Below are positions 4,077 through 48,201 of a stretch of 64,000 nt of DNA, piece by piece; the first letter of the stretch is position 1; each line of letters starts with the position of its first letter. The DNA is taken from the NCBI RefSeq assembly GCF_026571515.1, contig NW_026866837.1:1-64000 (forward strand). The letters run 5' to 3'. A program made the translations under genes and the position numbers. Under the pieces are notes generated by a model that was not told where the DNA came from, ran no database searches, and saw only the letters and a list, made by a program, of their open reading frames with translations. Source of the DNA: Ruditapes philippinarum. Lineage: Eukaryota.

Positions 4077-4535
4077 AAGGTCTATAAATCTGATGTTAAT
4101 GTGGTAAAGATGTTAATGATGTATTGTAATCTATTCGTCTTAACACCACAAAATGCAAATAGTCTCGTACTTAAAAGTGCTTCGCTTAACATATAGTAGT
4201 CTTAAAGGCATATATGCACCGACAAACGCAAAACTGACTTTAAAAACAAAGTTACATGGTCGAATTAAAACAAGATTTATTCGTATTCCAAGAAAACCTA
4301 CTGGTAATAGCAGTTTGCATTTTAGGCATAACAAATGAAGGGGAGGAGGAACTCCTTTTTATTCATCTACTATTGTATATATTAATTCGATACATTATAT
4401 TACATTTAATTAAATTTTTCAATGGAAAATTGTTACAAAGACTTCTAAAGCTGAAATTGTTTCAGGAATTGAGTACAAAGGTTTTGCTCCAGGTTAAGAG
4501 TTATGACCCTTTGATTTTTAGAAGCGACGTTAGTA

Positions 4536-4736
4536 AGTAGTCAAGGGGGGGAGGATAGAACACTTTTTTTGAGTAAAAAAACAAAATCACTTAAGCGTAA
4601 CGACAGCGCGCCGCCATCTTGGAACATTGAGTCTTCGTCTCACGTTACTAACGTCCGCCATATTGCGCCGACGGATCTGGCGGATCATATTGGTATATCT
4701 AGCAGACGACAGTTTAACTTGTCCGCCAAAATTTGA
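4536..4736 (+). repeat. Left terminal inverted repeat (201 bp) of the Polinton
   Basis: Reverse complement of 13769-13969; no mismatch found by manual comparison. Confidence 0.95.
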
Positions 4737-5271
4737 TCTTTTTACAAAGTATTTGTTTTAAGCTGGATTTTAAACCTCTGTAGCAGACGTTCTTTTTCCA
4801 ATTAAAGGTATAGGGCGGTTTAAACCCTCAGTGAAGTAAAATAAGTATTTCATATTAGAGGAAAAATAATTTTACTCGGCCTTTTGAAATGCAACCATGC
4901 TGAAACTAAGCGTACACTCTACATACAAACGGCCTGTTTTGTTTAACGCTATTTTCTATGTAAAGTTGACGTAGAGATGTCTACATGCTTTAACCTACAG
5001 TCTATGGGGTAAATAAAACGAACATAAAAAGCAGAACCAGATTTTGTGACTTTAGACGTATTTTATTTACAGTTATTACAACATAGAATATGCAAGAAAC
5101 AAATGTAAAATACATAAATACAATGCATATACTTTCAAGTAAATACGCTACAATCACAGGAGTCTATAGAGGGGGGTGTTTTTTTTTTAAGATAGACTTT
5201 CTGTGGCTTATTGATAGAATTTCAGACTCCTGTGCTACAATAAACTTAATATTGTGATTTTCAATATATTA

Positions 5272-8200
5272 TTAATAACCGTAAGGGAACGAATTGTAGT
5301 TTTCAGAGATCACTCTCTTGTCAAACACAATTTTATAGTCTTTTATTTCTGTCTTTGTTATGATGTGACACATTTCTCTGTTTCTAACGATTTTATTTCT
5401 GTCCACAACTTTAACGCATTGATTTTGCATCTGTCCCGTTACCATATCTTTCAGTGTATCAAAATTAATGTCCAGTGAATTCTTAAAATTTAGCGTAATT
5501 CCCCTGACTTTACAAATTGAAGATTGACCTTTTTTGTTTGGCTTTTCTAAACAATATGCGTAGTTCTTAGGCCCCCCGGTGATGAATCTAGTTATTTGAT
5601 TGTTTGGAACTTCATCCGTTAAATCTCCCAGGAAGTCACCTAATGGAGGATCCCACTCACCCTGTACAGAGGTGAACACAACAGAATCGGTATCACAATA
5701 CAAAACTCTTTCACCTAATGGTTGTAAATAACTGTACAATTTCAAACGGGCTTGAGCGGTTGTGTATGCAGCCACAACAACATTGGTTCTACCTGATGTT
5801 TCTATGAAATCAGTATTATATGCCCAGTCTAACTGGACTGCTTCATCATTTATAAAACGTACGTTCTTGATTTCTTGTTGGTCAGATGTCATCATATCAA
5901 TGAATTGAGATGGATCATCAATAAAGGTTGTTTGCGTAAGGTTGGAACGTTGTCCAAATTTCCCCCAGAAAGAGTTAAGAATAATTTTAGCTAAAAGTCT
6001 CAGACCAGGATTTTCTTCAATCTTATCATAATCTAGTAAAATACCTTCTTTATCAAAATACTGCTTAATATACAATTGTTTGTCTTTTTCATTTTCACAC
6101 CAGTCTGGCCAACCACTGGCTTCCTGTTTGACTTTCAAGAAAGTATTCACATATTCTGTAAAAAGCCCACCTGTTTTGGTACACGGGTCGTATTGAGCTA
6201 TTTCAGTGAAATGCCAAACTTCGTAAATGGTAAGTAACTTATAACCTTGTGATAAAGCCATCTTAACTTCATCAGTGACCCAAGTGCCTGTAATGGCCCT
6301 TTCATCGTCACCGTGGGGACATTCTCCATTTTTATATGTTTCACTACAGGTGCGACAAAGAGTGAACATAAGCTTACCATTGCATTTGTTTGGCAGGACG
6401 GGAATATACAGTTTTCTTGGAGGTAGAATTTTGCATTTAATTAACCCTTCGTAATAGCTTATATTCTTAAAATTTTCAGTGATTATATTTGGATGGCCTA
6501 ATGGTATTTTCCCTGTTTTATTGATGAATGGATACAGAGATGTGACATCAAAGTACTTAATCTGAGTATCAGCCGTGGACTTTGCATACATTTTAAATGC
6601 TTCAGTGCGTCCACCATGGAAGGCATCTCTCGGTTCTAACGGGGACACAATTTCCAAAGATTCGATGTACTTTTTCATGATAGGATTGGACTCTAATTTC
6701 TTTTTGAAATCACATTCCCATATACTTTCATAAATATACCCTTCAGATTCAAGATACGTTTGCTTATCAAGGGTGTTTGTATATAATTCAGACATGGATA
6801 ATCCATTCACCCGATTAATTGTGTTTTTAGAAAAACATTTAGGGCAGCCATGCCAGAAATCGCCATGAAATTCTAGAACAACTTTTTGACCTTCTGCTGT
6901 TTCATAGTACCCATCAACTTTATATGGTCCTATTTGTTTCTCCCCCTTATTTCGGCCATGTTGGATATATATTTGCCTTTCAAATGCAAGGTAGGATAAC
7001 CATTGATAAGCCATGACTGACTGTTTGGCCTCGGGGCGGTAACCATGAGACGGGATGATACCAATAGTTTCATGATTCAAGAAAAGACTCCTAAAAACAA
7101 GATTACAAGCTGATGCTATTGTAATGCATTTCTCAAATGGGTCTATTCCATCATTGTCCGATGTTTGAGTGAGTTCTTTGAACAGTGTTCTGAATTTTAG
7201 ACAACATTTTCTAAGAATATCAACATCAGATTGACAGTAACGTAATAATTCTGTCTGCAGTGAGAAGGGTTTGTGGCTATTGATAGCATACCACTTTAAA
7301 AACTTCTGACGTGATTCTGGCCTCATGCTGTCGGGGTTGTAATACTTAATGTCAGGCAGATGATCAAGTTCTACCGAGTAATTTTCCGTCGTATTAAATA
7401 GATGAGGAAAGTACCCTTTTGCCAGTTCAGTTTCTCCAAAAGCTTTAGGCATGTCTGCAAGGGCCATTGGAATGAAATTCAGAGAGTCAATGAATCTTAT
7501 TTGAAAGATAGGTACTACAATGGACATGTATTTTGATCCCGTTGTTATCACCTCGGGCAGAATGGCGTTGTCATACAAAAATTTCATGATGGGATAACTA
7601 TCATACCCTTTGAAATTATGACAAAGAACTGTGGCACCCTTATTTTCAACCGTGAATAACCACTTACAGAATGACTCAATGGTATTTGAACCTGAAAACA
7701 CCCATTCATTTGGACCACATTGTGAACACTTTGAAGACGAGGTAACGTCAAGATGCAGACAAGTACTACAAACCCTGTGTGCTACACATAAATTTGCCCT
7801 ATGTTCCATAGATCCACACCAGGACTTCTTACAATTAACACATGTATTGTTAACACCAGGCAGGTAACCAGAAGCGCATTCAAGACGTTTATCCTGTGTA
7901 CATTCAAGATCAAAGAAAATATATTTTGTCTGTTTTTCTCTCTTCGTATCATTTTCAGCTAGAGCGTCATCATCTTTAACCGGTTGCATGTAGCATAAGT
8001 GATTCTCACTAACAAAGTCTTTGCATGTGTCGCAATACTTTTCACCACAAATATGGTCATTTTTATGTTTTGAACGGTTAATAAGTTGGCTGCAATGTTT
8101 GCATCTGTAATACGATTCGCAAGTTGATTTTCCCTTTTCCGTCTTCTTATTGTGCAGATCAAAACAAGTTTGATTTACAAATTTACAGTTGCAGGTTTCA

Positions 8201-9441
8201 CAAAATTGCCAGTCTTCAGACACATCTTCGTGAAGTTTATGGCAAAAGTAGCAAGGGTTATTACACTTATGACGTTCTTTGGTTTGGTATCCTTTCTTAC
8301 ACTTTTGGCAAAAAAAGCTTCTGTTCAAAAATCCTGTCATTGAAGTAATAACGTCATAATGATCATCATGGTTGTAGATGTATATAGGCACACCTCCCTC
8401 TGGTCCTTGATAAATGATGGCATTGAAGTGTGCTTTAGATACTACATGGATCTGATAGTTTACTAGGGCCGCCTGGAATTTCTTCACCTCTTCTATCCCG
8501 CATTTTCCGAGTGGCACGTCCGCTTTTTGATGAAGTTCTTTGGCCAGGTCTCGCTGTATTTGACGACCTTGGCGAATAATATCCCACTGCGGGTGCTTTT
8601 CCACACGAGCTATAGCTGTAGCTAGAGCTCTGCCACAACAAAGTTCATCCTTATTCTTTATTTGTATTACACTTTTCTTGTTCTGTAACATCTGAGTAAT
8701 GTCTACTGTTGGTTTCATTTTGTATCCTGAGCCTTTAACGTTTACGACATGAACCAGTTCTATACCAAATGTCTCGTCAACAACAAACTGCTCATAAGAC
8801 TGTAAAACTCGTTCAATCTCAGAGAGAAGTCTATCAACAGTAAGAGCTGATCTTGGCATAAATGTCAACACAATCGGATAGTCCAGTTCTGGGTTATCCA
8901 TGGACACCCTCACTAAATCATTGGCTGGAATATGTTCTGTAATTCTTGTAAGTATAGATTGAAATATTACTTTTAGTGTTTTTAAAATATTTGGTAAATC
9001 TCTCACTTCCAAGTCCTTGATTTTAATATTATAGTAAGAGGCCGTGGTGTTGAACTTTTCAATTCGTCTTTCGTTTATTTTCACAATGTTATAGTATTCG
9101 GAGGCATTATCCTTTGGTGTTAATTTTTGTCGTTTTCCCGAGCTATTATGTTCGTTATCACCATGAGTTCTTTTCATTCCACTGCCAGTTTGATTTTCAT
9201 GTTGTGAAAAATGTTCATCAAGCGCATCTTTCCTTGTAAAAACTTTAAGGCATTCCGGACAGTGGTGAGAATTTTCGTCTGCATGTTTCTTCATATGACG
9301 ATCTAAGTTCTGTTTTCTGTTAAATGTCTTCTTGCAGCTAGGGCATGTAAATTTTTGCCAATGATTCTCTATTCTTCTGTGCTGAAGCAGTTGACTTAGT
9401 TTAGTGAAACTAGCTCCACACTGTTCGCATGTATAAGCCAT
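5272..9441 (-). CDS. polB: Protein-primed family B DNA polymerase (pPolB, 1389 aa) with N-terminal C2H2 zinc fingers, OTU-like protease, 3'-5' exonuclease and inserted VSR-like nuclease
   Basis: Uninterrupted ORF. ExoI FFDLE, ExoII HNFKGYD, ExoIII YCQSDVDIL. Pol motifs YFDVTSLYP, KIILNSFWGKFGQ, YCDTDS, PKNY. Three C2H2 fingers at the N-terminus. OTU-like dyad NKDELCCGRAL...HYD. VSR-like motif VDGY...EFHGDFWHGC...WEC. Confidence 0.96.
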   Translation of the reverse strand: MAYTCEQCGASFTKLSQLLQHRRIENHWQKFTCPSCKKTFNRKQNLDRHMKKHADENSHHCPECLKVFTRKDALDEHFSQHENQTGSGMKRTHGDNEHNSSGKRQKLTPKDNASEYYNIVKINERRIEKFNTTASYYNIKIKDLEVRDLPNILKTLKVIFQSILTRITEHIPANDLVRVSMDNPELDYPIVLTFMPRSALTVDRLLSEIERVLQSYEQFVVDETFGIELVHVVNVKGSGYKMKPTVDITQMLQNKKSVIQIKNKDELCCGRALATAIARVEKHPQWDIIRQGRQIQRDLAKELHQKADVPLGKCGIEEVKKFQAALVNYQIHVVSKAHFNAIIYQGPEGGVPIYIYNHDDHYDVITSMTGFLNRSFFCQKCKKGYQTKERHKCNNPCYFCHKLHEDVSEDWQFCETCNCKFVNQTCFDLHNKKTEKGKSTCESYYRCKHCSQLINRSKHKNDHICGEKYCDTCKDFVSENHLCYMQPVKDDDALAENDTKREKQTKYIFFDLECTQDKRLECASGYLPGVNNTCVNCKKSWCGSMEHRANLCVAHRVCSTCLHLDVTSSSKCSQCGPNEWVFSGSNTIESFCKWLFTVENKGATVLCHNFKGYDSYPIMKFLYDNAILPEVITTGSKYMSIVVPIFQIRFIDSLNFIPMALADMPKAFGETELAKGYFPHLFNTTENYSVELDHLPDIKYYNPDSMRPESRQKFLKWYAINSHKPFSLQTELLRYCQSDVDILRKCCLKFRTLFKELTQTSDNDGIDPFEKCITIASACNLVFRSLFLNHETIGIIPSHGYRPEAKQSVMAYQWLSYLAFERQIYIQHGRNKGEKQIGPYKVDGYYETAEGQKVVLEFHGDFWHGCPKCFSKNTINRVNGLSMSELYTNTLDKQTYLESEGYIYESIWECDFKKKLESNPIMKKYIESLEIVSPLEPRDAFHGGRTEAFKMYAKSTADTQIKYFDVTSLYPFINKTGKIPLGHPNIITENFKNISYYEGLIKCKILPPRKLYIPVLPNKCNGKLMFTLCRTCSETYKNGECPHGDDERAITGTWVTDEVKMALSQGYKLLTIYEVWHFTEIAQYDPCTKTGGLFTEYVNTFLKVKQEASGWPDWCENEKDKQLYIKQYFDKEGILLDYDKIEENPGLRLLAKIILNSFWGKFGQRSNLTQTTFIDDPSQFIDMMTSDQQEIKNVRFINDEAVQLDWAYNTDFIETSGRTNVVVAAYTTAQARLKLYSYLQPLGERVLYCDTDSVVFTSVQGEWDPPLGDFLGDLTDEVPNNQITRFITGGPKNYAYCLEKPNKKGQSSICKVRGITLNFKNSLDINFDTLKDMVTGQMQNQCVKVVDRNKIVRNREMCHIITKTEIKDYKIVFDKRVISENYNSFPYGY

Positions 9442-9874
9442 GTTTATTGTTGCACGACTGAAACGATAATGAAAAAATAAATATTAGTGTCGAGTTAAGT
9501 AATAAACTTAGAAAAAAGATATATACACAAAAATTAGATTTTGTCTTAATTTTGGTACAAGAAGAAAAAAACTTTTTTAAGAGCCTATAGTTATTTCAAA
9601 TATAAAAAGCCAGGCGAGACTACAAAAAGCCAGGCGAGACTACAAATAGCCAGGCGAGACTACATATTTTACCTTATCGAATTATAAATTATCCTTTCTA
9701 ATATTCGGCACTGATCTTACAGGAAAGAGATTCTCTCTAGAAATGAAGACAAAATAAGGTTCAGTGATTTAAATATCTAACGTTGCGCATGCGCAGAACT
9801 GTTTATTGTACTCTATATAAGATGTGGGTTCGTTTAAAACGTGCCATTTGAGTGCTAGCCAAAGGAGAGTCACG
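9442..9874. promoter_or_regulatory. Putative bidirectional promoter between polB and the ATPase/integrase unit
   Basis: Divergent genes. Three tandem 20-bp repeats AAAWAGCCAGGCGAGACTAC (9604-9663), perfect palindrome TGCGCATGCGCA (9784-9795, NRF1/EWG consensus) and TATATAA (9814-9820). Confidence 0.65.
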
Positions 9875-10214
9875 ATGGAAAATATTACTTGCTCGGTGTG
9901 CAATGAACCGTTTTCTAGTAGATACAGTGTACGTAGACACATAACACGAAAACATTCAGATTTAATTGAAGGAGCTCAGGAGCCACAGGTTGGAGCACCG
10001 CAACACCTCTTTGGAGCATCGGAAAACCATTATGGTACTCCGGTGTACCGGTGCACCGGAGCACCAGGAGCGCATTTTGGAGCACCGGGGCACCATATTG
10101 GTGCACCGGTGCACCAGTGCACCACTCCTCCTCAAACACCTACACTACGATCAGAAGAAAACAATGAAATGGTGTTTCAACATCCCTTCACTATGATGAT
10201 TTCAGGTCCCACAG
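9875..10214 (+). CDS. Polinton packaging-type ATPase, exon 1 (C2H2 finger, GAP-x-H repeats, first half of Walker A)
   Basis: ATG at 9875 lies 55 bp downstream of TATATAA. Reads MENITCSVC...HITRKH...FQHPFTMMISGPT and ends at donor G|GTAAAT (10215), phase 1. Confidence 0.85.
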
Positions 10215-10415
10215 GTAAATACATTCTTACCTTTTTTCTGTAAATTTTATCACCATTTGAGACTATTTTGCCCAATTTTATTCCAGATTTTGATACATAT
10301 TTCTAGATATTTTTTCTACATTTTTTCTTTCAATTTTTCTTTCTTTAAAAAAAAATCATATATTTGCTTAGTTTGAAAAATTTCCAAAATACTAATTTTT
10401 TCTTGTTTTTTTCAG

Positions 10416-11722
10416 CCTGTGGAAAGACGACGATGGTGAAAGAGTTATTGCAGAATCACAAATTGAAAATACAGCCTGGTATTCAAAGGATCGTGTGGTT
10501 ATACAAACGATGGCAACCATTGTACACTGTTATTGAAAGAACTGTTTTTCCAAGAGTAGAGTTTGTTCAAGGTTTACCATCAGACTTAGATGACGACGAC
10601 TACTTTGATACTAAAGTCAACAATCTACTGATCATTGATGATTTGTTCTCTGAATCTGGCAAAGATAAACGCATTACAGATTTGTTTACGGAGGGATCTC
10701 ATCACAGGTCTCTCTCAGTCATTTCAATTAATCAGAATCTGTTTGGAAACAAAGATCCTACACAGAGAAGGAATTGTCACTACTTAATTCTCTTCCAAAA
10801 TACGATAGATAAGCAATCAGTGATGACATTAGCCCGACAGATGTACCCAGGGAATAGTGAAAAGTTGTTGAAACCATTTGAAAAAGCTACCAAGTATCCT
10901 TACGGGTATTTATTGGTGGATTTAAAACCGTTTACACCAGAAGATCAGAGGATAAAATGTTTGATGTCCAAAAACACCAAAATTAATCAATCTACAGAAC
11001 GCGTTCATCACGTGACTCCTCCCCAAGAACCTATAAAAGAAACTGTTTTTCCAAAAGTAAATTATTCTACAGCTGCAGTTCAAACAGATCACATCGAGGA
11101 TAAATCACAAGATAATTACGAAAATAATTCGGAAGACATAATGGAACCTAAAGGACAAGCTTGCGATGATTGTGGGCAATTATTTGACACTAATCACGAC
11201 GTGCAGAGACATGTTAAAAGCGGATGGTGTCCTGAACACAGGGAATCAAGGAAACGAAAACACGAGGAGTTGAGCGATAGCGAGCATGACGAAGATTCTG
11301 TAGAAGATAATGAGGCTTACGTTAATATATGGAAAAGAGCTAGAGAATCAAACGATCAAAAATTCGATAAAATATACAACACATTTATAGACAATGGGGA
11401 GGAACATGATGATGCTCAGGAAATGGCGGAAGAGCGCATACAACCTTATAACGAAAAAGACTTTTTCAGCAAGTATACAACTTTAATAGATAACTATATT
11501 CTTCCACTCAAAAACAGTAGATTACATACACAGATTATGGTCCAGATAGATAAACTGGTTTCAAAAGGTTTAAATCCGACATCAGCCGTGAAAAAAGTTA
11601 TCAGAAAGCATAAGAACTCATTTCAAGACTTGTTTGATATGGAATTTTCTGATGATGAAGAAGAGGAGGAAACAGATGATGACGTCAGCGGGGAGGAGGA
11701 AAGTGACCAAGAAAATATATAA
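10416..11722 (+). CDS. Polinton packaging-type (A32/FtsK-HerA superfamily) ATPase, exon 2, with C-terminal Zn-finger/helical/acidic extension; spliced protein about 548 aa
   Basis: Acceptor ttttttcAG (10414-15), branch-point-like ACTAAT at 10391. Splicing restores Walker A GPTACGKT. Walker B LLIIDD and the SHHRSLSVISINQN motif are typical of Polinton ATPases. Confidence 0.9.
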
Positions 11723-11778
11723 ATTAACATAACTTATCTTCTGTTGTTTATTTGTGTTGTGAATTTTAGACAGTAAAC

Positions 11779-12211
11779 ATGGCTCCTTGGGAGGACTATT
11801 TAAAAACTATTTATTATGATGCTAAACATCCCGGTGCGTTTGCCGGACCACAAAAACTGTATAAAGTTGTGAAATCTGAAGGAAAATTTAATATTGGTAT
11901 GTACAGAATACGTCAATTCTTACATGATCAGGAGTCCTATAGCCTGCATAAACCAGTAAGGAGACGATTTCAAAGAAATCATATTGTAAGTGCAGGAAAA
12001 GACGATTTATGGATGGCTGACTTGATCGATATGGTGAAATTTGCTGATTGGAACAAGGGTTTCAAATACATTTTATTGGTGATAGATACATTCTCCAAGT
12101 ACGTCTGGTTACAGCCGTTAAAATACAAAACTGGAGAAGAAGTAGCTCAAGCGTTTCAGAAAATCTTTACATCTTCAGACAGATCACCGGCCAAACTCAT
12201 TACTGACAAAG
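11779..12211 (+). CDS. Polinton DDE integrase, exon 1
   Basis: IYYD..HPGAF, WMADLID (first catalytic D), VIDTFSKY, LITDK (second D). Ends at canonical donor G|GTAAGT (12212), phase 1. Confidence 0.92.
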
Positions 12212-12396
12212 GTAAGTATTTATTTTTCTACAATTTATTTTTCAATTATAATTAGAGTTAAGCAAGACCTAATTATTTACAACAATACAACTACTGTAAA
12301 TCTGATATTCATATATCACTTAATTTTTATTTAATTATATAGGTATATATATATATATTATGTAAGGCAGATACTACACATTATTTATTTTTTCAG

Positions 12397-13067
12397 GTCA
12401 GGAGTTTAAAGCCAGGAAGGTCCAAGCTCTCATGAAGAAAGAAGAAATTCAATATTTTCCTACTCAAAATGAAACAAAGGCATCTACCTCGGAAAGAGCT
12501 ATTTTGACTATAAAGACCAGACTCATGCGCTATTTTTCGTATTTGGAGACTAGTACATTTCTACCTGTGTTACAAGACATTGCCGATAATTATAATCGCA
12601 CCTATCATAGAACAATTGGAATGAGACCTGCGGATGTCAAGGACACAAACCAGGAAGAAGTGCGTTTAGCTACATACTTTGCGCAAAATCCAAAATCAAA
12701 ACGTCCAGACGTTACACTTAAACCTTTCAAATTTAAAGTGGGTGACTTTGTGCGTATCAGTCATCTAAAAACTGTGTTTACCCGGGCGTATGACCAAACA
12801 TACTCTGGTGAAGTGTTTAAAGTACATAAACGCTTCCACCGAGGCACACTACCTATCTATAGACTTCATGATTTACAAGACGAAGATATTAAAGGAACCT
12901 TCTACGAGAGTGAACTTCAGAAAATTAACGTTGATCCTAATCAGACTTGGAAAGTAGAGAAAGTATTAAAAACCCGTGGCAAAGGGCGAAACAAACAATT
13001 ATTTGTAAAATGGAAATATTATCCGCGTAAATTTAACAGTTGGATAAATGCTAGTGATTTAAATTAA
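12397..13067 (+). CDS. Polinton DDE integrase, exon 2, with C-terminal chromodomain; spliced protein about 367 aa
   Basis: Acceptor ttttttcAG (12395-96); splicing restores TDKGQEF. Catalytic E in SERAILT; YNRTYHRTIGMRP; chromodomain WKVEKVL...VKWKYYP.KFNSW. AATAAA at 13173-13178. Confidence 0.92.
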
Positions 13068-13624
13068 TATTCTTTAGTTTACTTTGCCTTAGTTATGTTG
13101 ATAATTTTGTCAATATACGTTCTGTACTTAATAGTTATATGTTCAATGTTTAAACTGTATTTATCTCATGTAAATAAAATTGGTGAAGTACACTTAAACT
13201 TTGTTGTATTTTTCAATTCAAAACATTTGCCGATATTACAAGCGTGCATTTAAACCTGGGTGTAATAATGCGTTTAAGGTAGTAAACGTCGTCTGCTCTG
13301 ACACAAAAAGTGATCGTCTGCTACACATTTAATCGTTTAACGTTTAACGATATCTTTGACCGCTATACAACAACTAACCAAGTTGTACATATCAATAAAC
13401 TTGCTGATATCTGATTGGCTGTCTAATAAATTGAGCCAAAAAAAGTGGTGAAAAAACTTACCAAATATTGAGAGATTTTCTTTGCTGTGTGTAAATTCGA
13501 ATAATTTTATCTGTAAGCGATTGTGTTGATGTGAACCGTACGCTGTCAATAGCGGTAATGAAATAAAGTATCGGAAAATTGGTTTAAATACTGTACAGCA
13601 GATAAATAGTTTATGATGAAATAG

Positions 13625-13800
13625 AGCGTCTGCTACAGAAGTTTAAAATACTATCTTAAATCAAATATTGGGAAAAACTATTTTCAAACTTTGGCGGCCA
13701 ATTTAAACTGTCGTCTGCAACAGAGGTTTTAAATACATGTACTAGCTAAATATTGGTAAAAACTATTTTCAAATTTTGGCGGACAAGTTAAACTGTCGTC
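13625..13800. repeat. Subterminal imperfect tandem repeat (about 85 bp unit, 2+ copies) running into the right TIR
   Basis: CGTCTGC.ACAGA.GTTT.AAATAC...AAATATTGG.AAAAACTATTTTCAAA.TTTGGCGG.CAA.TTAAACTGT is repeated from about 13627 and about 13712. Confidence 0.8.
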
Positions 13801-13969
13801 TGCTAGATATACCAATATGATCCGCCAGATCCGTCGGCGCAATATGGCGGACGTTAGTAACGTGAGACGAAGACTCAATGTTCCAAGATGGCGGCGCGCT
13901 GTCGTTACGCTTAAGTGATTTTGTTTTTTTACTCAAAAAAAGTGTTCTATCCTCCCCCCCTTGACTACT
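13769..13969 (-). repeat. Right terminal inverted repeat (201 bp) of the Polinton
   Basis: Reverse complement of 4536-4736. Confidence 0.95.
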
Positions 13970-16900
13970 TTAGTAATCTAATACACGGATTCGAAGGATT
14001 GTGTCCCTTGATAACTCTTTCCGCTGCAGGTTAGATCTTCAGCATGCAATGCAATAAATAATAATGAGAAGACATCAAATTCTTGAATTGTACACAAAAT
14101 TATTTCACATGAACAATTATTGTGCAAGTATGTTAACAAGGAAAATTTCATGTCAGAAACTATAAAAAGATCTTTATTTATTTGAAAGTATAAGTTCAAT
14201 AATGTATATATATTTTTAATCTTTTCCCTACTTTTTTAAACTTCGTCCTTGCTACAGTAAGATTTGTCCTTACATTTTAGAATTAACATTTTCAGACCAT
14301 AATATTGTTGTTGGGTCGTAGACCGCTTGACCTTGCGCGTCTGTCTTTTTAGAAAATCTTTTTGAAAACATTTATTTTGCATACTTGCTTATCTCATTTT
14401 CATTTAGACCATGGTACACAGCGTTTGAATGGAACAACTTAAAGTGATATACTTAATTCCCGATTAAATTAAACTTGAACATAACCCTTTAGGTCTTTAA
14501 TAATCAAAATTACATTTTTAACCACAAAGATTTTAAACGTAATATCTTTTGACATCGTACATCCAGACAAATATTAACATTCTTTTTTTAGCTAAAGATG
14601 TATATCCGTTTTTATTACCAATTCATTCTTTTTTAATTCAGTTTTTATGTGTTGTAATGTACCTCTGTAATTGGTCTAAACCTTATCTGTCATGTCGCTA
14701 TGTATGAAGAATTTTTATATGAATGAAATGTCTGTCTTTTTTGTTGAAGATTTCACAGTTCTTTTCTTGAAGGAAATGATTACTTCACACGAATTTTTCA
14801 ATAAAACTAACCGCAAGTGGCGTGCGGATAATTAGAAAACTTGGGTTTAATTTTAAACCTGACATGTTATACGACATGCTAATTAAACTCTCGAGTATAA
14901 AGCGGGCACTGAATGTCCAGTGGTGTCATGTCAGGCCACGCAACCGGGCGCTACGAATTAGACTCATATCTTTATTTTCAATCAAACTAAGTTTAGCGTG
15001 CTTCATAGTTAACACAGTAAATTAATGGATCTAAAGCTAGAAATAGGTACAAAATAGGTATAGTCAAAATGTCACCTGTTATGACAATAGATGATAATAT
15101 CTAAAACAACATAGAAAGAAGAAGTTCGAGTCCCATTTGTAGTGGCCATTGCTAGCTTTAGATAGAAGGTGTGAATCTCAGTAGTGACTCGGGTTGACCC
15201 GAGTTAATCAGAAATACAACCGGCTTTCACATGCCATATTTTGAAAAGCTATTGTATTTTGCGCAATACAAACATAAACGAGGTCGTAATCGAAAGTCGA
15301 ATACATAATTTAATTTTTCCACTATTGACATTATGTAATTAGCAATAGAAAATTAGTTAATTTTACCACATAAAATAGATTAGGATTATCAGATTAACTT
15401 TTATATCTTTTAGTGGTTGTAAACGTTTGATATTTTACATGTATTTGTATACTATAATTGACAAATAAATCTGACTTCTTGACTGCCATCCAAGTAGACA
15501 ATTACAGTCTGGCATGCATGCATGCCTGCATTAACGTGATGTAAATGAAATTTTACCGGTGCTTCAACTGCCAAAATATCACATAATAAGACAACTTTTA
15601 TTTGTACCTGCACATAAAACAGCGCATTGTCAGCATATTAGCCAATTGGTATATATAAAGCAAATGTAACAAGACCGCAAGTGTCAACTATTTCAACGTC
15701 AACAAGTAACAAGTTGATGATGAACGCGGACATGTAGCTATTAAATGGTTTGTTATACAATAGAAAAAGCAAAAGAAGAAAAAAAACTCCAAAAAAAAAA
15801 AACGTAAAACAAAAATAAAACAAACAAATAAAAAAAGGAGATAAAAATCGCAAAGCGGTGAGCGGCAGATATGTCTTATTTTTCAGTTCATTGCCATGCT
15901 ACAGTCACAGTAATATATTGCATTCAACGACAGGCAGATGTAAAAAAAAAAAGATGTTTCAGTTATTTCCTCAACACTGTACCAAGACGATACCGGTATA
16001 AACCGGGAGATTTCGGTATGTATACGTATATAAACCTGAAGGAATTCTTGTAACGGGTTTCTTATGAATGGTACTTTAGCAACACTTCATATTGTATAGC
16101 TGTCAATAAAATTCTGTAATAAATAATATCTTATTGTTTATTGTTGATTACAGGAACGTCAATGTAATTTGCAATTACAGCTCTGTAAGTATAGAAATGA
16201 TTCCACCCAATTTTAACCACAGGTCCTGATTTCAATCGTTTTGTAAAGGAAGAACAGAACGTAATTATCCAGAAGTTTAAAATGTCTTTATCAACTCCCG
16301 GACTGATTGTCATTGGGTAGGACCCAAATTAAGCACTAGACATGGTACAATAGGTAATCGGCATCTAAGTAAGTCCTGAGTCTGAGCCCCTGTTGGTTTG
16401 ATTGGTATGGCTCTAGGTTACCACTGGTCACATGTAATACATGGCAGGTAGGTTTTCAAGCTGGTGATTTGTAAGTTATTTGATTCTGAATGAAGCGCGT
16501 TAGTGTTAACGTCAAAATGCAGAACACATGTGAAATTGATGAAATGTTATAGACAGCGGGTTTTTGACATGCTTACTAAGCCTTTAAAGTTAAGATAAAC
16601 ATTCGGGTGATATGTTTTCAAGTTACAACATACCTCTGTTGACAGCCTGTCCCTGGGTTTGTTAATGCTTGAATTACTCGAATTCCTCTGCCCTCTTTCT
16701 GCTCCCTTACTCGAATCTTTATCCTGTACCCCAGGATCCACATTATCCGTGGAACTTGCAGACACAAGCGCAAAATACATGGTAAAATCCTCACAGGAAT
16801 CAAACTGATACACTATAATCACTTTTCCATATCTCACCACCACACCTCAGGTAAGTTAAATATGCACAGTTAGACATTCTTTAAAGGTATATTCCATTCA

Positions 16901-33202: not shown

Positions 33203-35199
33203 ACTAGAACTATCACTAAATGTGATTAATACCCCCACAAGTCTGCTTCGGAAATGAGGATGTTACTAGTAACAGAATACCTTGTAATAGAATTGAAACA
33301 TAGAGTTATGGTTGTGGGCAATTAAAGATAATTGTGGTTCATGTATGTTGCATTTCCTTTCAATGTGGTTGGCCATTGATGAAGTTTAATTGAATTACTC
33401 TGTAATAAGTCCAGAAAGACAAAGAAAAAGAACAAAGGGCAATAACTCTATAAATACTGAAGATAGAGTTATAGTTCTTGTGCACTGCACTTCCTTTTAT
33501 TTTTCTTGACCATTGTATGAAGTTGTTTTGAATTTCAACCAGTATGTTTTAAGTTATGCTCCAGACAAGGAAAAGTATCAAAGGCAGTAACTCTGTATTT
33601 TGTCAAAATGGAGTTATGGCTCTTGTGCACTGCACTTCCTTTTAATGTCCTTGACAACTGTATGAAGTTGTACTGAATTCCAAACAGTAGTTTTCAAGTT
33701 ATGCTCTCGACAAGGAAAAGTAACAAAGGGCAGTAACTCTGTAATTAGTCAAGATGGAGTTATGGTTCTTGTGCACTGCACTTCCCCTTATTGTGCTTGA
33801 CCATTGTATGAAGTTGTTTTGAATTTCAACCGGTAGTTTTCAAGTCATGCTCTGGACAAGGAAAAGTAACAAAGGGCAGTAACTCTGTAATTAGTCAAGA
33901 TGGAGTTATGGTTCTTATGCACTGCACTTCCTCTCAATGTGCTTGACCATTGTATGAAGTTATAATGAATTCCAATAATAAGTCTTCAAGTTATGGTCCG
34001 GACAAAAGAAAGCAATGGAAAAGTAACAAAGGGCAATAACTCTGTAATTAGTCAAGATGGAGTTATGGTTCTTTTGCACTGCACTTCCCCTTATTGTGCT
34101 TTGCCATTGTATGAAGTTGTTTTGAATTCCAACCAGTAGTTTTAAAGTCATGCTCTGGACAAGGAAAAGAAACAAAGGGCAGTAATTCTGTAATAAGTCA
34201 AAATGGAGTTATGGTTCTTGTGCACTGCACTTCCTCTCAATGTGCTGGACCATTGTATGAAGTTATAATGAATTGCAACAATTAGTCTTCAAGTTATGGT
34301 CCGGACAAAAGAAAGCAATGGAAAAGTAATAAAGGGCAATAACTCTGTAATTACTTTAGATAGAGTTATGGTTCTTATGCACTGCACTTCCTCTTAATGT
34401 GCTTGACCATTGTATGTAGTTATATTGAATTCCAACCATTAGTCTTCAAGTTATGGTCCGGACAAAAAAAGAAGGCAATGGAAAAGCAACAAAGGGCAAT
34501 AACTCTGTAATTACTTTAGATAGAGTTATGGTTCTTGTGCACTGCACTTCCCCTTATTGTGCTTGACAATTGTATGAAGTTGTTTTGAATTCCAACCAGT
34601 AGTTTTCAAGTTATGCCATGGACAAGGAAAAGTAACAAAGGGCAATAACTCTGTAATTAGTCAAGATAGAGTTGTGTTTCTTACGCACTGCACTTCCTCT
34701 CAATGTGCTTGACCATTGTATGTAGTTATATTGAATTCCAACCATTAGTCTTCAAGTTATGCTCCGGACAAGGAAAATGCAACGGACAAAAAAAAAGCAA
34801 TGGAAAAGCAACAAAGGGCAATAACTCTGTAATTACTTTAGATAGAGTTATGGTTCTTGTGCACTGCACTTCCCCTTATTGTGTTTGACAATTGTATGAA
34901 GTTGTTTTGAATTCCAACCAGTAGTTTTCAAGTTATGCCCCGGACAAGTAAAAGTAACAAAGGGCAATAACTCTGTAATTACTTTAGATAGAATTATGGT
35001 TCTTATGCACTGCACTTCCTCTCAATGTGCTTGACCATTGTATGTAGTTATTTTGAATTCCAACCATTAGTTTTCAAGTTATGCTCCGGACAAAGAAAAT
35101 GCAAGGACGTCTGGACCGACCGACTGACCAACCAACCGACCGACCACTGGGTGACTCCTATATACCCCCCCCCCCCCAAACTTTGTTTTTGGGGGTATA
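33203..35199. mobile_element. HINE/DINE-like (Helentron-associated) element with internal tandem array (146/158-bp units, about 11 copies)
   Basis: Starts AAACTAGA. Array anchored by AAAGGGCAATAACTCT...GTTCTTGTGCACTGCACTTCC, then a (GACC)n microsatellite and terminal hairpin TATACCCCC...GGGGGTATA. Confidence 0.8.
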
Positions 35200-37480: not shown

Positions 37481-39347
37481 ACAAGAGGGCCATGATGGCC
37501 CTGAGGTTGCTCACCTGTATAAAGGCACCCGGAGCGGGGCCAGTTTAAACCCAAGGGCTTTTATTTGAACAAACTTGGAAGACACCCATTAGAAGATGTT
37601 TCACAATGTTAAGTTTTTACTACACACATATAATAAAAAAAAGATCTACCCCTCCCCCACCCCCCCCCCCGGCCAATTTTAACCCAAGGGCTTTCATTTG
37701 AACAAACTTGGTAGACACCCATAAGAAGATGTTTCATGCTAAACATCTAAGCTCTAGCTCATTGGGTTTTTTTAAAGAAGATTTTTTTAATTTTTCACTA
37801 GACACTTGTAGTTAAAACCAATGACACCCCTGGGGCGGGGCCAATTTTGACCCCAGGGCTTTTATTTGAACAAACTTTGTAGACAATTACTAGAAGATGT
37901 TTCATGCTTAATATCTAAACTCTAGCTATTTGGGTTTTTTCAAAGAAGATTTTTAAGTTTTTGCTATACAAATATAAGGAAAATCAATAACACCCGGGGC
38001 GGGGCCAATTTTAACTCCAGGGCTTTTATTTGAACAAACTTTGTAGACACTCACTAGAAGATGTTTCATGCTTAATATCTAAACTCCAGCTATTTGGGTT
38101 TTTTCAAAGAAGATTTTTTAAGTTTTTGCTATATACATATAAGGAAAATCAATGACCCCCGGGGCGGGGCCAATTTTGACCCCAGGGCTTTTATTTGAAC
38201 AAACTTGGTAGACACCAATTAGAACATGTTTCATGCTAAATATCTTAGCTCTAGCTCTTTGAGTTCTTTAAAAGAAGATTTTTTAAGTTTTTACTATATG
38301 CATATAGGGAAAATCAATGACCCCCTGGGGCGGGGCCAATTTTGACCCCAGGGCTTTTATTTGAACAAACTTGGTAGACACTTATTAGAATATGTTTCAT
38401 GCTAAATATCTTAGCTCTAGCTCTTTGGGTTCTTTAAAAGAAGATTTTTTAAGTTTTTACTATATGCATATAGGGAAAATCAAAGACCCCCTGGGGGGGC
38501 CAATTTTGACCCAAGGGCTTTTATTTGAACAAACTTGGTAGACACTCACTAGAAGATGTTTCATGCTTAATATCTAAACTCTAGCTTTTTGGGTTTTTTC
38601 AAAGAAGTTTTTTAAGTTTTTGCTATACACATAGAAGGAAAATCAATGCCCCCCTGGGCGGGGCCAATTTTGACCCCAGGGCTTTAATTTGAACAAACTT
38701 GGTAGACACCCATTAGAACATGTTTCATGCTAAAGATCTTAGCTCAAGCTCTTTGAGTTCTTTAAAAGAAGATTTTTTAAGTTTTTACTATATGCATATA
38801 GGGAAATCAATGACACCCTGGGGCGGGGCCAATTTTGACCCCAGGGCTTTTATTTGAACAAACTTGGTAGACACTCATTAGAAGATGTTTCATGCCAAAT
38901 ATCTTAGCTCTAGCTCTTTGGGTTCTTTAAAAGAAGATATTTTAAGTTTTTACTATATGCATATAGGGAAAATCAAAGACCCCCTGGGGCGGGGCCAATT
39001 TTGACCCCAGGGCTTTTATTTGAACAAACTTGGTAGACACTAATAAGAAGATGTTTCATGCCAAATATCTAAGCTCTACCTCTTTGGTTTTTTTAAAAGC
39101 AGATATTTAAAGTTTTTTCTTTCGGTTGCCATGGCAACCAGAGTTCTGCATGGAATTAAATTCTTCGAACAATTTTTAAAGGTGACCACCAAAGGAACAT
39201 TCCTGCGAAGTTTGGATGAAATTGGCTTAGCGGTTTATGAGGAGATGTCATTTAAAGTAAAAGTTTACAGACGGACGGACGCCAGACGGACGCCGCACGA
39301 AAAGCGATCACAAAAGCTCACCCTGTCACTTTGTGACAGGTGAGCTA
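37481..39347. mobile_element. HINE/DINE-like element with about 165-bp tandem array (about 9-10 units)
   Basis: ACAAGAGGGCCATGATGGCCCT hairpin, subterminal GCTCACCTG/CAGGTGAGC inverted repeat, (GACG)n microsatellite, terminal hairpin AGCTCACCCTGTCAC-TTT-GTGACAGGTGAGCT. Confidence 0.85.
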
Positions 39348-40729: not shown

Positions 40730-41431
40730 TCAATCGGCGAAGCCATTTTTCTTTGATGGCGGTACCAGGTGTTCTGGAAGTTCATTTGGTAAATCATGTC
40801 CTTCTAATTTTATTTGAATCAGATGATTGGCTAACGCCCATTCATCAGTGTCTAACTGTCCATCTCTATCCACGTCAGCTAACTTCCAAATCTTACCAAG
40901 AACAGAATTTGGCAGTTTGGATTTTACCATTTCAGCTTTTGCTGCAGCGCCTGTTATTTTGCCATTTATTGGGTTTAGTTTAGTAAACACGTCATCATAT
41001 TTGTACTTATCCTGTCCAACGATCCATTCATGTTCGCCCTTTCCAGCGTCTGTCCCTTCCCCTCGTCCAAACCCAAATGGACTCTCATTGTAAGCCTCAA
41101 AAGCACCTCCTTCTACATTTGGTCTCTCATTCTGCATGTTTTGGTCTTCTAGTGGAATCATTTCCATCAACCTTGCAATATCTGTTGCCAACATTTTATC
41201 AACAGTTTCAATCAATTTCGGCCGTAGTTGATGAAATTTGGTGAAATCTTCGGACTGCAGTTGCTCTTGCATACGCTTCAGATTTGGGAAATCTCCTCTC
41301 GAGATTCCGTGCTCTTTTTCAAGCATAGTGTATGTTTCGCCCAGTTGCTTGATCAATTCTTTCTTCTTTGAATCTTTTCCAAACATGGAAGGCATGTCTT
41401 TCTTCAGAGCACTGATGATATAGGCATGAAC
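40730..41431 (-). CDS. EHD1: EH domain-containing protein, coding exon 2 (helical region + EH domain); spliced protein 538 aa
   Basis: Acceptor tactttcAG|GTTCAT gives VHAYIISALKKDMPSMFGK; EH domain KLPNSVLGKIWKLADVDRDGQLD; C-terminal LPEHLVPPSK. Confidence 0.95.
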   Translation of the reverse strand, partial: VHAYIISALKKDMPSMFGKDSKKKELIKQLGETYTMLEKEHGISRGDFPNLKRMQEQLQSEDFTKFHQLRPKLIETVDKMLATDIARLMEMIPLEDQNMQNERPNVEGGAFEAYNESPFGFGRGEGTDAGKGEHEWIVGQDKYKYDDVFTKLNPINGKITGAAAKAEMVKSKLPNSVLGKIWKLADVDRDGQLDTDEWALANHLIQIKLEGHDLPNELPEHLVPPSKKNGFAD

Positions 41432-44400
41432 CTGAAAGTAAATATAACATATGTATGAATTTTACCACAGTTAAATCGTCGTTATAAACATCTTACCTGT
41501 TGTATTTTAAGCAACACAAGTGCAATTATACTGTCACAAAGCATTGTTGTATCTTAGCATTTGATATACAAATTATATACAGTAATTTATTATAATACAA
41601 GTTATTTATTATTATATATTATTTCTCTCTCATTTCTATTTTACATATGTTCTGAAAATGTTTATTTTCTACTTAAAGATTGAAGGGCAACATTTTGCAT
41701 CATAATTAGTTTTAATTTTATTCAGAGCCATTATGCACGATTTTAAGTAATGTCAGGCTCCAAATATAATCGATAATAATTTACATGTACATAACTAAAT
41801 ATATATAGGTACATGTAGATATCTTTATTCACTTGATTATAATAAAATACTCATGGGAAATTAAGAATCCTCTTAATAAAAATGAACAAAGCCAGGCCAG
41901 CTTGTACATACATGTGTAAAATTAATGTATACAAAGACTGTATGACCAAACCTTACATCTGACCAGTACAATTGGGTTACTCTGAGAAAAATGCAAGAAA
42001 ATTCTTTAAAAGTTCATAAATAACAAAATTACAGGCTGATTCTGGTAATTTTACCACCAATTCTGATAAGTGGAGTGACTTAGTAGCAGTGTACATTGAT
42101 TAAAACCCTTACCACACAAAATATCTTTATAAATTGACTTATCCATCATAAAATCTAGACAAAACCATAATAATTTTCAGTGAAATCTTTCAAAATATGT
42201 ACTGACTACATGTATAGTGAACACTATTGACTCTCAATAATCAGAGGGTATGGACACAACAGCTGATCTTGGTCTGCACTGCTACTGGTCTGACACTTGG
42301 TTAGAATCAGCTGCCGCCACCAGGCTTAAGTTTAATTTCCTTAAATCAACCAAAACCAAAACAGGGCAAAAGTCAATTACACAAAGTTCATATGGTAACA
42401 GTTCAGCTCATTATGTAATCATAATATTGCATGCTGGCATACTTCAAGGTGAGTTGACCCTTTGTACTTTGAAAGATAGACAATTTTGTAATCAAATAAG
42501 TGAACTTTTATAGCAACAAAACCACAATCTTCTTCTTGTTACAACTTTTTTGCCAATAAAACTCAAATACATGAAAAGTAACTACATTTTGTAACCTTTG
42601 TATCAGAACAGTTGTTGCATTTCAAGCTATTAAAATATCAAACTTAAATATTTGATATTTAGGATGGGTAAATTCTAGAAAATCAGGAGTATTTATTTGA
42701 TGAACATTGAGTATAATACAATGGAATAAATGACCTTGACCTATGTCATCCCACAAACCCCTTTGCTAACAATTATTGATATATTTGTACTTTTAATTAT
42801 TATCTTTCATCTTTTCCAAATTATAAAGCTTGATGCAAATCCTGAAAACTACACTGATCAGTACTTTAATCAAATTAGGAAAACTGATCAATTTATTCAA
42901 CAATTAATCGTTTAAAATCAAATGTCATTAAACATCCACCTATTGTAAACAGACTGGCAGTTAATAATAGGGAGAGGTAAGATTACTTGTGTCCTACAAT
43001 GTCAAACTTGTAATTAGTGATAATAGGGCGTTGTTATCAGATAAGATTGTTGCCACGACACACAACGAAAAACAACATTACAATTTACTGCATGATAATG
43101 AATCACATTTAGAATCGTATGACCTGATCAATAATATTGTTCTGAAAACATCTTTCCTGTATTCATGTAGGGTATATAAATATATATACATAGCTTTTAC
43201 ACCCAATCAATATAGTTATAAAGTGCTTTATACTAGTATATGTAGCAGTAGTTGTAGTTGTCCTAAAAAATTAATCTAGAATTTGATTTATTCCATGTAA
43301 ATTTCAGTAAGGACCATAATTTATTGGCTTTTTCAAATCTGAACAGGGTAACAAAAAAAACCAACACTTTTTTCTCTGCATATTCTCCTTCAAGGACAGT
43401 TTTACATGTATGATTTAATTATTAATGTTTGTATGTATAATATGCAACTAGGGTTCATTTTAAACTTGGCAGTCCTGATGATAAGGGTATATTACCTTAA
43501 TATATTAACTTGATTTAGATTTTATTTACATTTTAATACCTTGTGTTTTGTACTTGCTCACCAGTTATTTGAATAATGTATTGTCCAGAGTTATTGTAAG
43601 CGCTTCTTAAATGAAAATAATAAAATTAAGTGGCCAACAAAATAAAGAACCTTCAGACTTATACAGGTTCGACTGACTATATTGGTGCCTACATAAAGCC
43701 TATCATTGCATTATCTTGGCCAAACAAAATCAAGTCTTTGTATAAATTGTCTAAAACTTTTATAAGCTTATTTCAATATTCCATTGGACTAAATGGTTTA
43801 TATTCATAAGCTTTTGAGGATGCTGCAAAATATCCTAAAGATACAACTCTGCTATTTCTGATGGATTATTTCTGTCATGTAGGCAAGTGTTCCTTGTACC
43901 ATACTGTATTAAACCTTCTATTATTTATGATATTACACCTGTTGCAGGCTGTCCAGCAATTACACACCTACCATAACTCTTAGTGCCATGACTATGTACA
44001 TGTATATATATCACTTTGATAAGGCAATACAATAGATTACAAAATAATTTAATTGAATTATATTATCTCAGACACAAATGAAGCACCTAAACACTTACAG
44101 TACCATAATGCATAATGCTTAAACAGGAAAACACTATCTGTCCTAATATCAAGTTTGAAATCAAATTAAAAAGTTAAACTCCTATATGGTCAAATAACCT
44201 AATGGGTAATGGTTTTAGAAAAAATAATTATTGCAAATCATGCCTGCATTGGTTTTTAAAGTGTTTTTTTTTTACATAAAGTTGAAAATGAAGAAAGCTT
44301 TTAGCTTGTGAGTCCACTTTCATGATGAACTAATATGGTCTCAGTTACACTCAAAGTCAAACTCTGAGAGACAGTCATCTTGACCATAAGACCAATATTC

Positions 44401-45569: not shown

Positions 45570-47286
45570 AACTATATTATGAATTATGTCTTTAGATAAT
45601 ATTGTTATACTATGTGGACAAACTATATTAAAATTCAGGAGTCAAATTACCATAATACACATTATAGTGACAAAACAGTTTTTAATAGGTCAGGAAAACA
45701 GTTTAACATATATAATTTTTTTAGTCCAAAGATGGAGCTTCATTAGAAGTTAACTTAATTTAAGTAAACTTTTAGTCATCTCCTTTTTTCAATTAAAAAA
45801 ATGGCCTAGAGGTTTCATAAAAATTTCATAATTATCTTCATATTACAATCAGCTTTCCAGATAAATAAAAAAAATTGGATAAAACTAAAAGAAATAATAT
45901 AACTGTGAATTTTATTTTTACGACAACATTCTTTAAACCTTTCATCAGCTGGAACCAAAATTGATTAGCCATTGCCACCCATACAAGGCAAGGCCAACCT
46001 GGACACAAGTGCAGCAGTGCAGCATAATCTAGTTATTTACAGTTGGTAGCTTAATTTTTATATTTTTGATATTGAAATTCCAGAAACGTTGAATGGACTG
46101 TTCCAAACCAAAAACTGGGTAAATCCATTGCATAAAAATTCAGCAGGTTTTGATATAATGCGACAAGATCAATTCTGATAATCAATTACAAAATCACATG
46201 AATCTTCTTATGTTGCAAAAACTGTGTAATCAGGAAGTACAAAATGTCAAGATTTCTTCTTAACAATCGCTTGATGGAGGTCAAAACAATTATCCATTAT
46301 TATAACATCTATAGGTCTTATTTTAAGTGGTAAAATGATCTTAAGATGCACACACCTTCAAGGTTTAAAGGTTCTTCATGTTCTTGAAAAAACTTTTTGC
46401 TGAAGAAATATTGAATGTATGTAAAAATTGGTCTTTATTTCAATAAATATTTTAGTTTTTTGTCACATCCTTAAAGTGCTTGTTATTTTAAAATATCACA
46501 TTGTTAATAATATTTTGCCAACAAGGAAGAATAATATGATATATGACATTGATTTAACATGCCCTGAGAATTTATTAACCTATCGTTTGTGACATTTATC
46601 ATGATTTATGTCTGTATATTTTTGTCATGATTTACAGCCATATCCTATCTATTCCAACAATAATCTTACTAAAAAAATGAAAAATTCTTTTTAAATAAGA
46701 AGTATAAATACTAAAGTTTGAACATTCTTTTAGGCTGATTTAGATCACCCTATTCAAAATCTTACAGGGCTTTTTTCCTTCTCTAGCCCAGGCTGTTTAA
46801 AGTAATTATACATGTATGTAAATGTAGGCCTGTTTCCCTCTGGAAACTTCTTTAAAATCACACAGTTTTCCCCTTAAACTCAGTTAATTCAAGTTTTTTT
46901 CCCCTTTTGCATTACTTCCAAGCCATTTTCCCCAAAATTTAAGGGAAGGTCCCCTTATGGTCTGCCTTATTCAAGTTACTGTTTTGAAGTAATTTGCAAT
47001 GTAATTCATCATATATATTTAAACTGAAGGAAGTTATCTTGAGGGTAACAGGCCACCAAGAATTAACAGTGAATGCTTTACAACTAAAATAAAATAAAAA
47101 TTTATTGAATTTCAGTTTGCATGTCATAATTATATACATGCATCTAATTAAACAGACCAAGTTTATATTAATATATATTCGAATACAATGTACTACTACT
47201 AGTTCTACTACATTAACTGTGAATATAAAGAATTAGAAATAGAAATTAGAAAGTAATTCTAGCCTGGTTACATCTACTATTTATAC

Positions 47287-48201
47287 CTTTGCAAGTCTTG
47301 CCCTCTTAATCAAGTCATTCAGTTTCCGCAATGCCGCATTTCTTGGAAGACTTTGAAGATCACTGAACAAATCTTTTTCTTCCAGCTCAAAGAGTTTTCT
47401 ATTCATATCATGCTGTAAGGGATGGTCCCAGAATGAGCCTATGTAGACCCGTGCAACCTCTGGAGTATTTAAAACTTTGCCTAGTGACCACATTAAGGCA
47501 CCATAAACTCTCATCAACTGTTGATGGTCAACACCATCAGCTTTATTTAAGACTATCCTTATCTTATCATCATATCCTTTAATAGCATCAATAGCACGAT
47601 GGAATTCATCAGATATATCTAACTTGTGTGCATCAAACAAGAGAATAATTCTATCAACTCTTTCCGCAAACCATTCCAAGACACCAGGAAAGTCATATCC
47701 ACGATCGACCCTTTGTTTTTCACCGGACAAAATGCCTGGAGTGTCTACAATAGTGATACTGTCCAATACTTGGTTATGCACTGTAGAACACTGGAACCGG
47801 TTAAGAAACGCATTCCCAAATTTAGTTAATGGTCGGAATTGTTTAGATGGATCTACAACTGCGGCGTTACCTGGAATAACACCGTCCTGATCTCCTCCCA
47901 TTACAGCAATGAACCGGTCAGTTGTTGGTTCTGGACCTATACGTATACCTGGAAAGTCTTGCTCCAAAAGATACCTAATAAAAGTTGTTTTACCAGTGGA
48001 ATACTGACCAATAAGTAAAATCATTGGTTTAGCATCAAAATCGGGATCATCAAGCTTTGGTGAATGGAAATCATGAAATCTGTAAGTTTCTTCTAGTGGA
48101 AGCAACTTTTGTCTATAAATTTTCTTCAAACCTTCAGCCACAGTGTCAAAAACCTCCGGCTCCTTACGACGCTTGTCGTCCCCAGATAACCACCGCAACA
48201 T
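47287..48201 (-). CDS. EHD1: EH domain-containing protein (EHD1/EHD3/PAST1 family), coding exon 1 (dynamin-like G domain)
   Basis: GQYSTGKT P-loop, [24 protein letters not shown]. Ends RARLAK|GTATAA, a phase-0 donor. Paralog assignment is uncertain; likely the single invertebrate EHD ortholog. Confidence 0.95.

Follow-up and report, generated by a model that had tools for sequence, protein, structure and literature searches.

Polintons, also known as Mavericks, are self-synthesizing transposons characterized by a pPolB, an rve integrase with a chromodomain, an A32/FtsK-type ATPase, TIRs and a 6-bp TSD, and known elements span 15–20 kb (PMC8097293, PMC4028283 and bioRxiv 10.1101/2022.07.12.499685, in the portions available). 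Their core genes are described as uninterrupted. Intact vertebrate Mavericks have no introns according to the available text of PMC8097293, in agreement with Kapitonov and Jurka 2006, and in a C. plicata element the core genes are intronless and introns are found in cargo genes only (bioRxiv 10.1101/2022.07.12.499685, available portion). Nine Polintons that lack the MCP also lack the ATPase and the protease, as far as the accessible part of PMC4028283 reports.

Introns in comparable genes have been described in other kinds of elements. Ginger1 elements are TIR-bound DNA elements of 2.6–7.1 kb with a single transposase, a Gypsy-like DDE integrase carrying one to four mostly GT-AG introns (PMC2836005, available text). 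In bivalves, the DDE transposase of the Tc1-like TLEWI elements, of a kind that normally has no introns, has acquired spliceosomal ones; these elements lack TIRs, are low-copy and look domesticated (bioRxiv 10.1101/656579, available text). In dinoflagellates, spliceosomal-type introns sit inside maverick-polinton-like proviruses; these introners are intron transposons present in many copies, most of which entered capsid-bearing proviruses after these had integrated (PMC11957031, in the part accessible). Insertion at the most conserved, catalytic positions is known from inteins and group I introns, a preference that spliceosomal introns do not share (PMC2814812, accessible part). Our literature search found no account of spliceosomal introns in Polinton core genes, and none is given in the available portions of PMC8502044, PMC10748475, PMC12220804, PMC11296320, PMC10294476, PMC5803895 and 10.64898/2026.10.13.758929; Repbase, the founding papers, subscription journals and supplements lay outside this search and could record them. 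Judged from sequence, introns in the core genes of a Polinton thus appear to be new, those in Ginger elements, Tc1-like transposases and dinoflagellate Polinton introners being known.

The locus described here lies in a window of 64,000 nt (the whole stretch of Ruditapes philippinarum DNA that was analysed) and is a three-gene Polinton/Maverick of 9,434 bp (4536–13969). Two identical TIRs of 201 nt with an AGTAGT end (4536–4736 and 13769–13969) bound the element, flanked by both copies of the 6-bp TSD TTAGTA (4530–4535 and 13970–13975). Between them are encoded a protein-primed pPolB (5272–9441, minus strand; 1,389 aa in one coding exon, N-terminal C2H2 fingers, Pfam DNA_pol_B_2 at E 2.3e-47) and, on the plus strand, an A32/FtsK-type ATPase and an rve integrase. 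The only other ORF of at least 100 aa inside the element measures 101 aa, which leaves neither a capsid gene nor a protease gene. The element is therefore a Polinton transposon, yet not of the capsid-encoding kind. At 9.4 kb and three genes it is smaller than known Polintons, it differs from them in having introns in core genes, and it keeps the ATPase that the MCP-less Polintons described in the available text of PMC4028283 have lost. The nearest named proteins come from the clams Mya, Mercenaria and Ruditapes, and no relatives were found in viral and prokaryote genome collections. A Ginger identity was rejected because pPolB and the ATPase are encoded between the TIRs; moreover, in a tree that contained no Ginger sequence, the integrase clusters with those of capsid-bearing Polintons. 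Unlike TLEWI, the clam element is bounded by identical TIRs and a TSD, and dozens of loci are related to it. Elsewhere in the window, minus-strand stretches at 40730–41461, 47281–48207 and 54857–55195 are presumably host exons, resembling an EH-domain (EHD) gene and a Yippee-like gene, and satellite-like arrays, whose units measure 28, 165, about 150 and 41 nt, occupy 49680–52450, 37540–39240, 60360–61740, 33410–35110 and 53030–53850.

The ATPase gene consists of exon 1 (9875–10214, with a C2H2 finger and the first half of Walker A) and exon 2 (10416–11722, with the A32/FtsK-type core, a C2H2 finger and an acidic tail), which join into 548 codons. The predicted intron between them (10215–10415, 201 nt, GT-AG, phase 1) splits Walker A as GPT|ACGKT, and the equivalent of its joint, 10214^10416, is used by the automated RefSeq model of a sister copy (L023). 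Assignment of the ATPase rests on homologs, which have PF04665 (Pox_A32), and on its alignment with ATPases of gene-rich Polintons; the exon alone gave no Pfam A32 match and a PDB sequence search returned nothing. The pPolB had been called intronless in the original prediction, and this holds for the coding region, where no recurrent insertion or intron was seen across copies. Upstream of its ATG, however, an intron of 215 nt is predicted in the 5'-UTR (9458–9672, minus strand), whose donor, branch-like CTAAT and acceptor are kept in most of 18 sequences, including diverged families, and the contrast drawn with an intronless polB is weaker accordingly. A 20-nt unit repeated three times inside this predicted intron (9604–9664) is conserved even among families that cannot otherwise be aligned, and the zinc fingers of the element may bind there.

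Capsid-bearing Polintons are also present in this genome. A protein search revealed many intronless Polinton integrases, and those examined sit in gene-rich elements, two of them with an adenovirus-type protease match and several with a short A32 ATPase. Four gene-rich elements have in common an ORF of about 430 aa; its fold model is of low confidence (pLDDT 43.7), and the structural matches listed for it are all double-jelly-roll major capsid proteins (best E 6.7e-7), which suggests a candidate capsid protein. This ORF had no match in any of the three-gene loci, and a PDB sequence search with two capsid candidates returned nothing. In the capsid-bearing elements L058 and L074 the integrase has PC4-like and TBP-like genes as neighbours, and a further locus (L089) has PC4 and a BIR-domain ORF.

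The integrase gene is interrupted at 12212–12396 (plus strand) by 185 nt of phase 1 that fall in the Gly codon of TDK|GQEF and adjoin the predicted second catalytic Asp, D143. Exon 1 (11779–12211, 433 nt from the ATG at 11779, ending in phase 1) supplies codons 1–144 with the predicted catalytic D81 and D143, and exon 2 (12397–13067, 671 nt including the stop) the predicted catalytic E177 and the C-terminal chromodomain; these three residues are assigned as catalytic by analogy with the rve family. Joined, the exons form an integrase-chromodomain protein of 367 codons. Pfam rve matches exon 1 alone at E 2.7e-5, under the curated cut-off, and Chromo matches exon 2 at E 3.7e-6, while full-length homologs have both domains and read TDKGQEF unbroken across the joint (e.g. 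Mya proteins of 367–368 aa with 78–80% identity to exon 2). The original prediction had described a GTAAGT donor, a ttttttcAG acceptor and a length of 185 bp, with which the bases agree (GTAAGT from 12212, TTTCAG through 12396), and its proposal that removal restores D-x-G-x-E-F and joins two fragments into a 367-aa integrase-chromodomain is borne out by the reading frame and by these homologs. Both right-arm genes do carry phase-1 introns at catalytic motifs, that of the ATPase being predicted.

GT donor, polypyrimidine tract and AG acceptor are the spliceosomal features found in this intron (intron 1). Its GC content is 19%, and consensus-like branch-point sites were located only 65–127 nt upstream of the acceptor. 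Group I and group II identities were rejected on this GC content and on the outcome of an Rfam search at gathering score over 4500–14000, which gave no match; in contrast to inteins and group I introns, the clam introns are short, AT-rich and GT-AG, with no ORF. Searched against the genome (a search that skips simple repeats), the intron sequence matched only itself and one sister copy. An introner identity was rejected since the intron is not multi-copy and its cores are unrelated between families; unlike introners, it was inherited within the lineage. Intron 1 is almost certainly a real GT-AG intron.

A spacer of 56 nt (11723–11778) separates the ATPase gene from the integrase gene and contains no AATAAA, the first such signal after 11700 being at 13173–13178 (plus strand), and a single contig of run X5 covers both genes. 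A motif, TCATTT...GGACA...CAGTAAAC, precedes the integrase ATG and is kept in many families. A 3' splice site directly before this ATG (AG at 11768–69) was considered and rejected, not being conserved in L037, L038, L040, L041 and L043. In the automated Mya models P0128, P0139, P0012 and P0037 the ATPase is fused to integrase exon 2 by way of the intron 1 acceptor, which may reflect either alternative splicing or a fault of the annotation.

Eight runs were compared with the element, among them X5 and X9, which are presumed to be RNA (not so recorded; two studies); an RNA status is recorded for none of the listed data sets carrying the sequence. Contigs of these two runs contain a joint that omits exactly the 185 nt from GT to AG, i.e. 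12211^12397, the X9 contig (645 nt) showing two differences from the window, one on each side of the joint. The single-copy flank 14737–15730 has zero cover in four runs, X5 and X9 among them, which fits an RNA origin of the contigs. In X6 a contig enters intron 1 unspliced, X1 has no contig over the integrase, and among the pieces listed for X7 intron 1 is unbridged. The sole true RNA raw-read run, X24, placed just three reads on the element. Although labelled RNA-seq, X22 and X23 were rejected as evidence of expression: 57–59% of their reads continue into unlike sequence with loose ends at GATC, as in Hi-C-like DNA, and the joined form is absent from both. The ATPase intron is retained in contigs of four runs (X1, X5, X7, X9) and its joint is not among the joints listed, beyond which there are at least 22 more; the pPolB 5'-UTR intron is unspliced in one run (X5 contig, 8547–9650). 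A lack of splicing in transcripts, which the original prediction named as the result that would speak against it, is thus not what the X5 and X9 contigs show, both runs being presumed RNA. Retention of intron 1 in the window copy leads to a stop after 14 intron codons, an active integrase is predicted to depend on splicing it out, and host splicing likely decides whether the element makes a working one.

A genome search yielded 66 matches, from which 36 stretches were analysed, introns being called through protein anchors and the N-terminal ATPase exon being left out as too variable. At the site of intron 1, 26 of the 27 copies with both anchors are interrupted by 75–1,376 nt and the remaining one has the donor followed by a deletion, so that there is no clean empty site (0/27); a pattern search of the assembly for an intron-less junction also had no match. 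Base by base, GT and AG are exactly placed in 16 of 18 copies, the exceptions being L024 (acceptor changed) and L035 (donor lost). Between families the intron cores (75–188 nt) are unrelated (z about 0 against shuffles), whereas the splice ends are kept and the exons are 54–97% alike. Of 14 other callable loci, 13 have the ATPase intron; it is absent in L037 and also in L087. A second integrase intron, absent from the window copy, occurs in 6 of 28 loci (L034, L035, L038, L040, L041, L042; 135–213 nt, GT-AG, phase 2) in Arg codon 178, directly after the predicted catalytic E177, and insertions of 190–199 nt without a canonical donor occupy this site in L047 and L050. A distant family (L064 at 5870–7687, and L085 in two tandem copies) has an intronless integrase and its own phase-1 Walker A intron, two codons downstream of the position in the window ATPase (GPTSS|G|KT); its layout is an integrase, a long ATPase with a poly-Gln N-terminus and a convergent 1,300-aa ORF with no Pfam polymerase match. 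In the families with an 87-nt intron 1 (L023–L026, P0007) the intron is in frame and stop-free, and retention would add 29 residues inside the active site. A rearranged and internally deleted copy of the window family (L092, C10910:1-10000) has 97–100% protein identity.

One of these relatives, L023, is an element of 9,117 bp with TIRs and a 6-bp TSD, matched at 99.8–100% by a RefSeq protein of the Manila clam. Compared with the window, dN/dS is 0.05–0.07 for the integrase, 0.12 for pPolB and 0.15 for the ATPase, and all three genes are under purifying selection between intron-bearing families. The corresponding dS values are unequal (pPolB 0.30, ATPase 0.98, integrase 1.3–1.5), which suggests module swapping between families. 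The original prediction had taken the introns as a sign of long-term, DNA-only propagation in the nucleus; this fits with purifying selection on three genes and no ORF for a capsid or protease, but adenoviruses splice heavily, and the introns alone are therefore no proof of capsid-free life.

Relatives in metagenome DNA (n=18) are informative on the direction of change. Eleven have intron 1 at the same site (95–258 nt), six have an empty site and one is uncallable. The close relatives L105, L106, L107 and L110 are intronless, and the empty site in intronless relatives reads AAAG|G or AAGG|G. L110, with 72% and 64% identity over the two exons, has the ATPase-then-integrase layout with both introns absent, as does L107, and the introns are therefore likely later than the layout. 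In an integrase tree of 47 sequences (excluding L112, an identical match to L111, as well as L113, L103 and genome copies that were degraded or nearly duplicates), the 20 DNA-verified intron-1 sequences all fell into one clade (UFBoot 59, the sequences being mosaic), nested within 100-supported groups of intronless or contiguous-ORF sequences. Nesting of this weakly supported clade makes intron 1 likely a gain, and a single gain is the simplest reading of the sequences. The presence/absence phylogeny called for in the original prediction thus gives one nested clade, the base of which is uncertain because a tree of exon 2 alone did not separate the intron-marked sequences from seven contiguous-ORF relatives.

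The introns are found at strongly conserved places. Conservation windows over 45 contiguous integrases place the two intron sites in the top 0.3–3.3% (the rank of intron 2 was computed one codon off, codon 178 still being among the top 20 windows), and the Walker A sites rank in the top 5–10% among 61 close homologs and the top 0.2–9% among 11 divergent ones. On worst-case ranks Fisher's p is about 0.002, a post hoc value for three or four sites only. The integrase exons hold 45 other AG|R sites, none as conserved as the two used and three in the top 5%, and pPolB offers 47 AG|G sites. Two copies (L028, L029) combine L025-like flanks with an L040-like core, switching at codons 80–84 (D81) and at E177-R178; L034 has the first switch in common with them and carries intron 2. 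Recombination between families hence takes place at these motifs and is the likely route by which an intron reached a different backbone. Intron 2, where homology ends, may itself impose the 3' switch, and as crossovers favour conserved stretches anyway, the coincidence of crossover and intron is no proof of cause.

Taken together, the explanation that we favour, with reasonable though not full confidence, is that of a spliced GT-AG intron in the integrase of a capsid-less Polinton whose motifs likely attracted and kept introns through protosplice sites and recombination. A bivalve-associated lineage with only pPolB, ATPase and integrase would copy as DNA in the nucleus, and introns once gained would not be erased by reverse transcription. 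One gain at the Lys-Gly codons after D143 would have spread through the clade, followed by gains at Glu-Arg (E177) and in Walker A. Invariant motif codons would supply the protosplice sites AAAG|G, GAAAG|G and ACAG|C, and the same motifs would serve as identity stretches for recombination between diverged families, carrying introns to other backbones. Splicing would then act as an on-off step for transposition. Quite another account would make the 185 nt an assembly artefact or an insertion that inactivates the gene, with the joined contigs derived from an intron-less DNA allele. This we consider very improbable: the RNA nature of X5 and X9 is presumed and intronless relatives do occur in metagenome DNA, but the exact GT and AG around unrelated cores, the absence of the intron-less junction from the assembly and of the joint from the X22 and X23 DNA reads, and the uncovered flank largely refute it.

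The remaining readings concern the reason why the introns are there. They might be selected splice switches, much as retention of the third intron of the P element keeps transposition off, or shields from a HUSH-like host surveillance that targets intron-free RNA. Such a role is possible but on balance doubtful. Contigs show spliced and unspliced forms, each of the three genes contains an intron, be it real or predicted, splice ends are maintained between families with dS above 1, and the in-frame 87-nt intron, if retained, would give a full-length protein with a split active site. However, the unspliced contigs could be DNA carry-over, close relatives (L105, L106, L107, L110) do without introns, L037 and L087 lack the ATPase intron, and placement at motifs would be unneeded, because any intron before the last catalytic residue switches the gene off. 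We hold it unlikely that the gains were nearly neutral events at protosplice sites, put at motifs by chance and because the codons for Lys-Gly, Glu-Arg and Thr-Ala contain AG|G or AG|C. That empty sites in intronless relatives already are protosplice sites, that the sites are few and were noticed after the fact, and that a fifth, predicted intron lies in a UTR would all be expected under such neutrality. Against it stand the lower conservation of the other AG|R sites in the integrase and the 47 AG|G sites of pPolB, which has no recurrent coding intron, and spliceosomal introns have no preference for conserved sites (PMC2814812, accessible part). The original prediction had also seen a possible adaptation to host expression; conserved protosplice sites together with recombination explain the motif placement at least as well, and this is the reading that we prefer. 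A bolder version of it, for which we see at best a slim case, would be that three or four introns were gained, each at a catalytic motif (the two halves of the integrase active site and, on two occasions, Walker A) because co-resident families recombine there, and spread like an endonuclease-free homing, putting every transposition step under host splicing.

Searches for intact elements that require uninterrupted ORFs (PMC8097293 and PMC10748475, in their available text) would class this lineage as broken. What they would pass over is an element of viral descent that lives as a minimal DNA transposon of three genes and keeps a packaging-type ATPase under selection although it has no capsid. 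It is also a rare system in which recent polarised intron gains, empty-site relatives, presence/absence differences within one genome and visible recombination tracts occur together, and in which two questions, spliceosomal intron gain and splicing as a control of transposons, become testable together.
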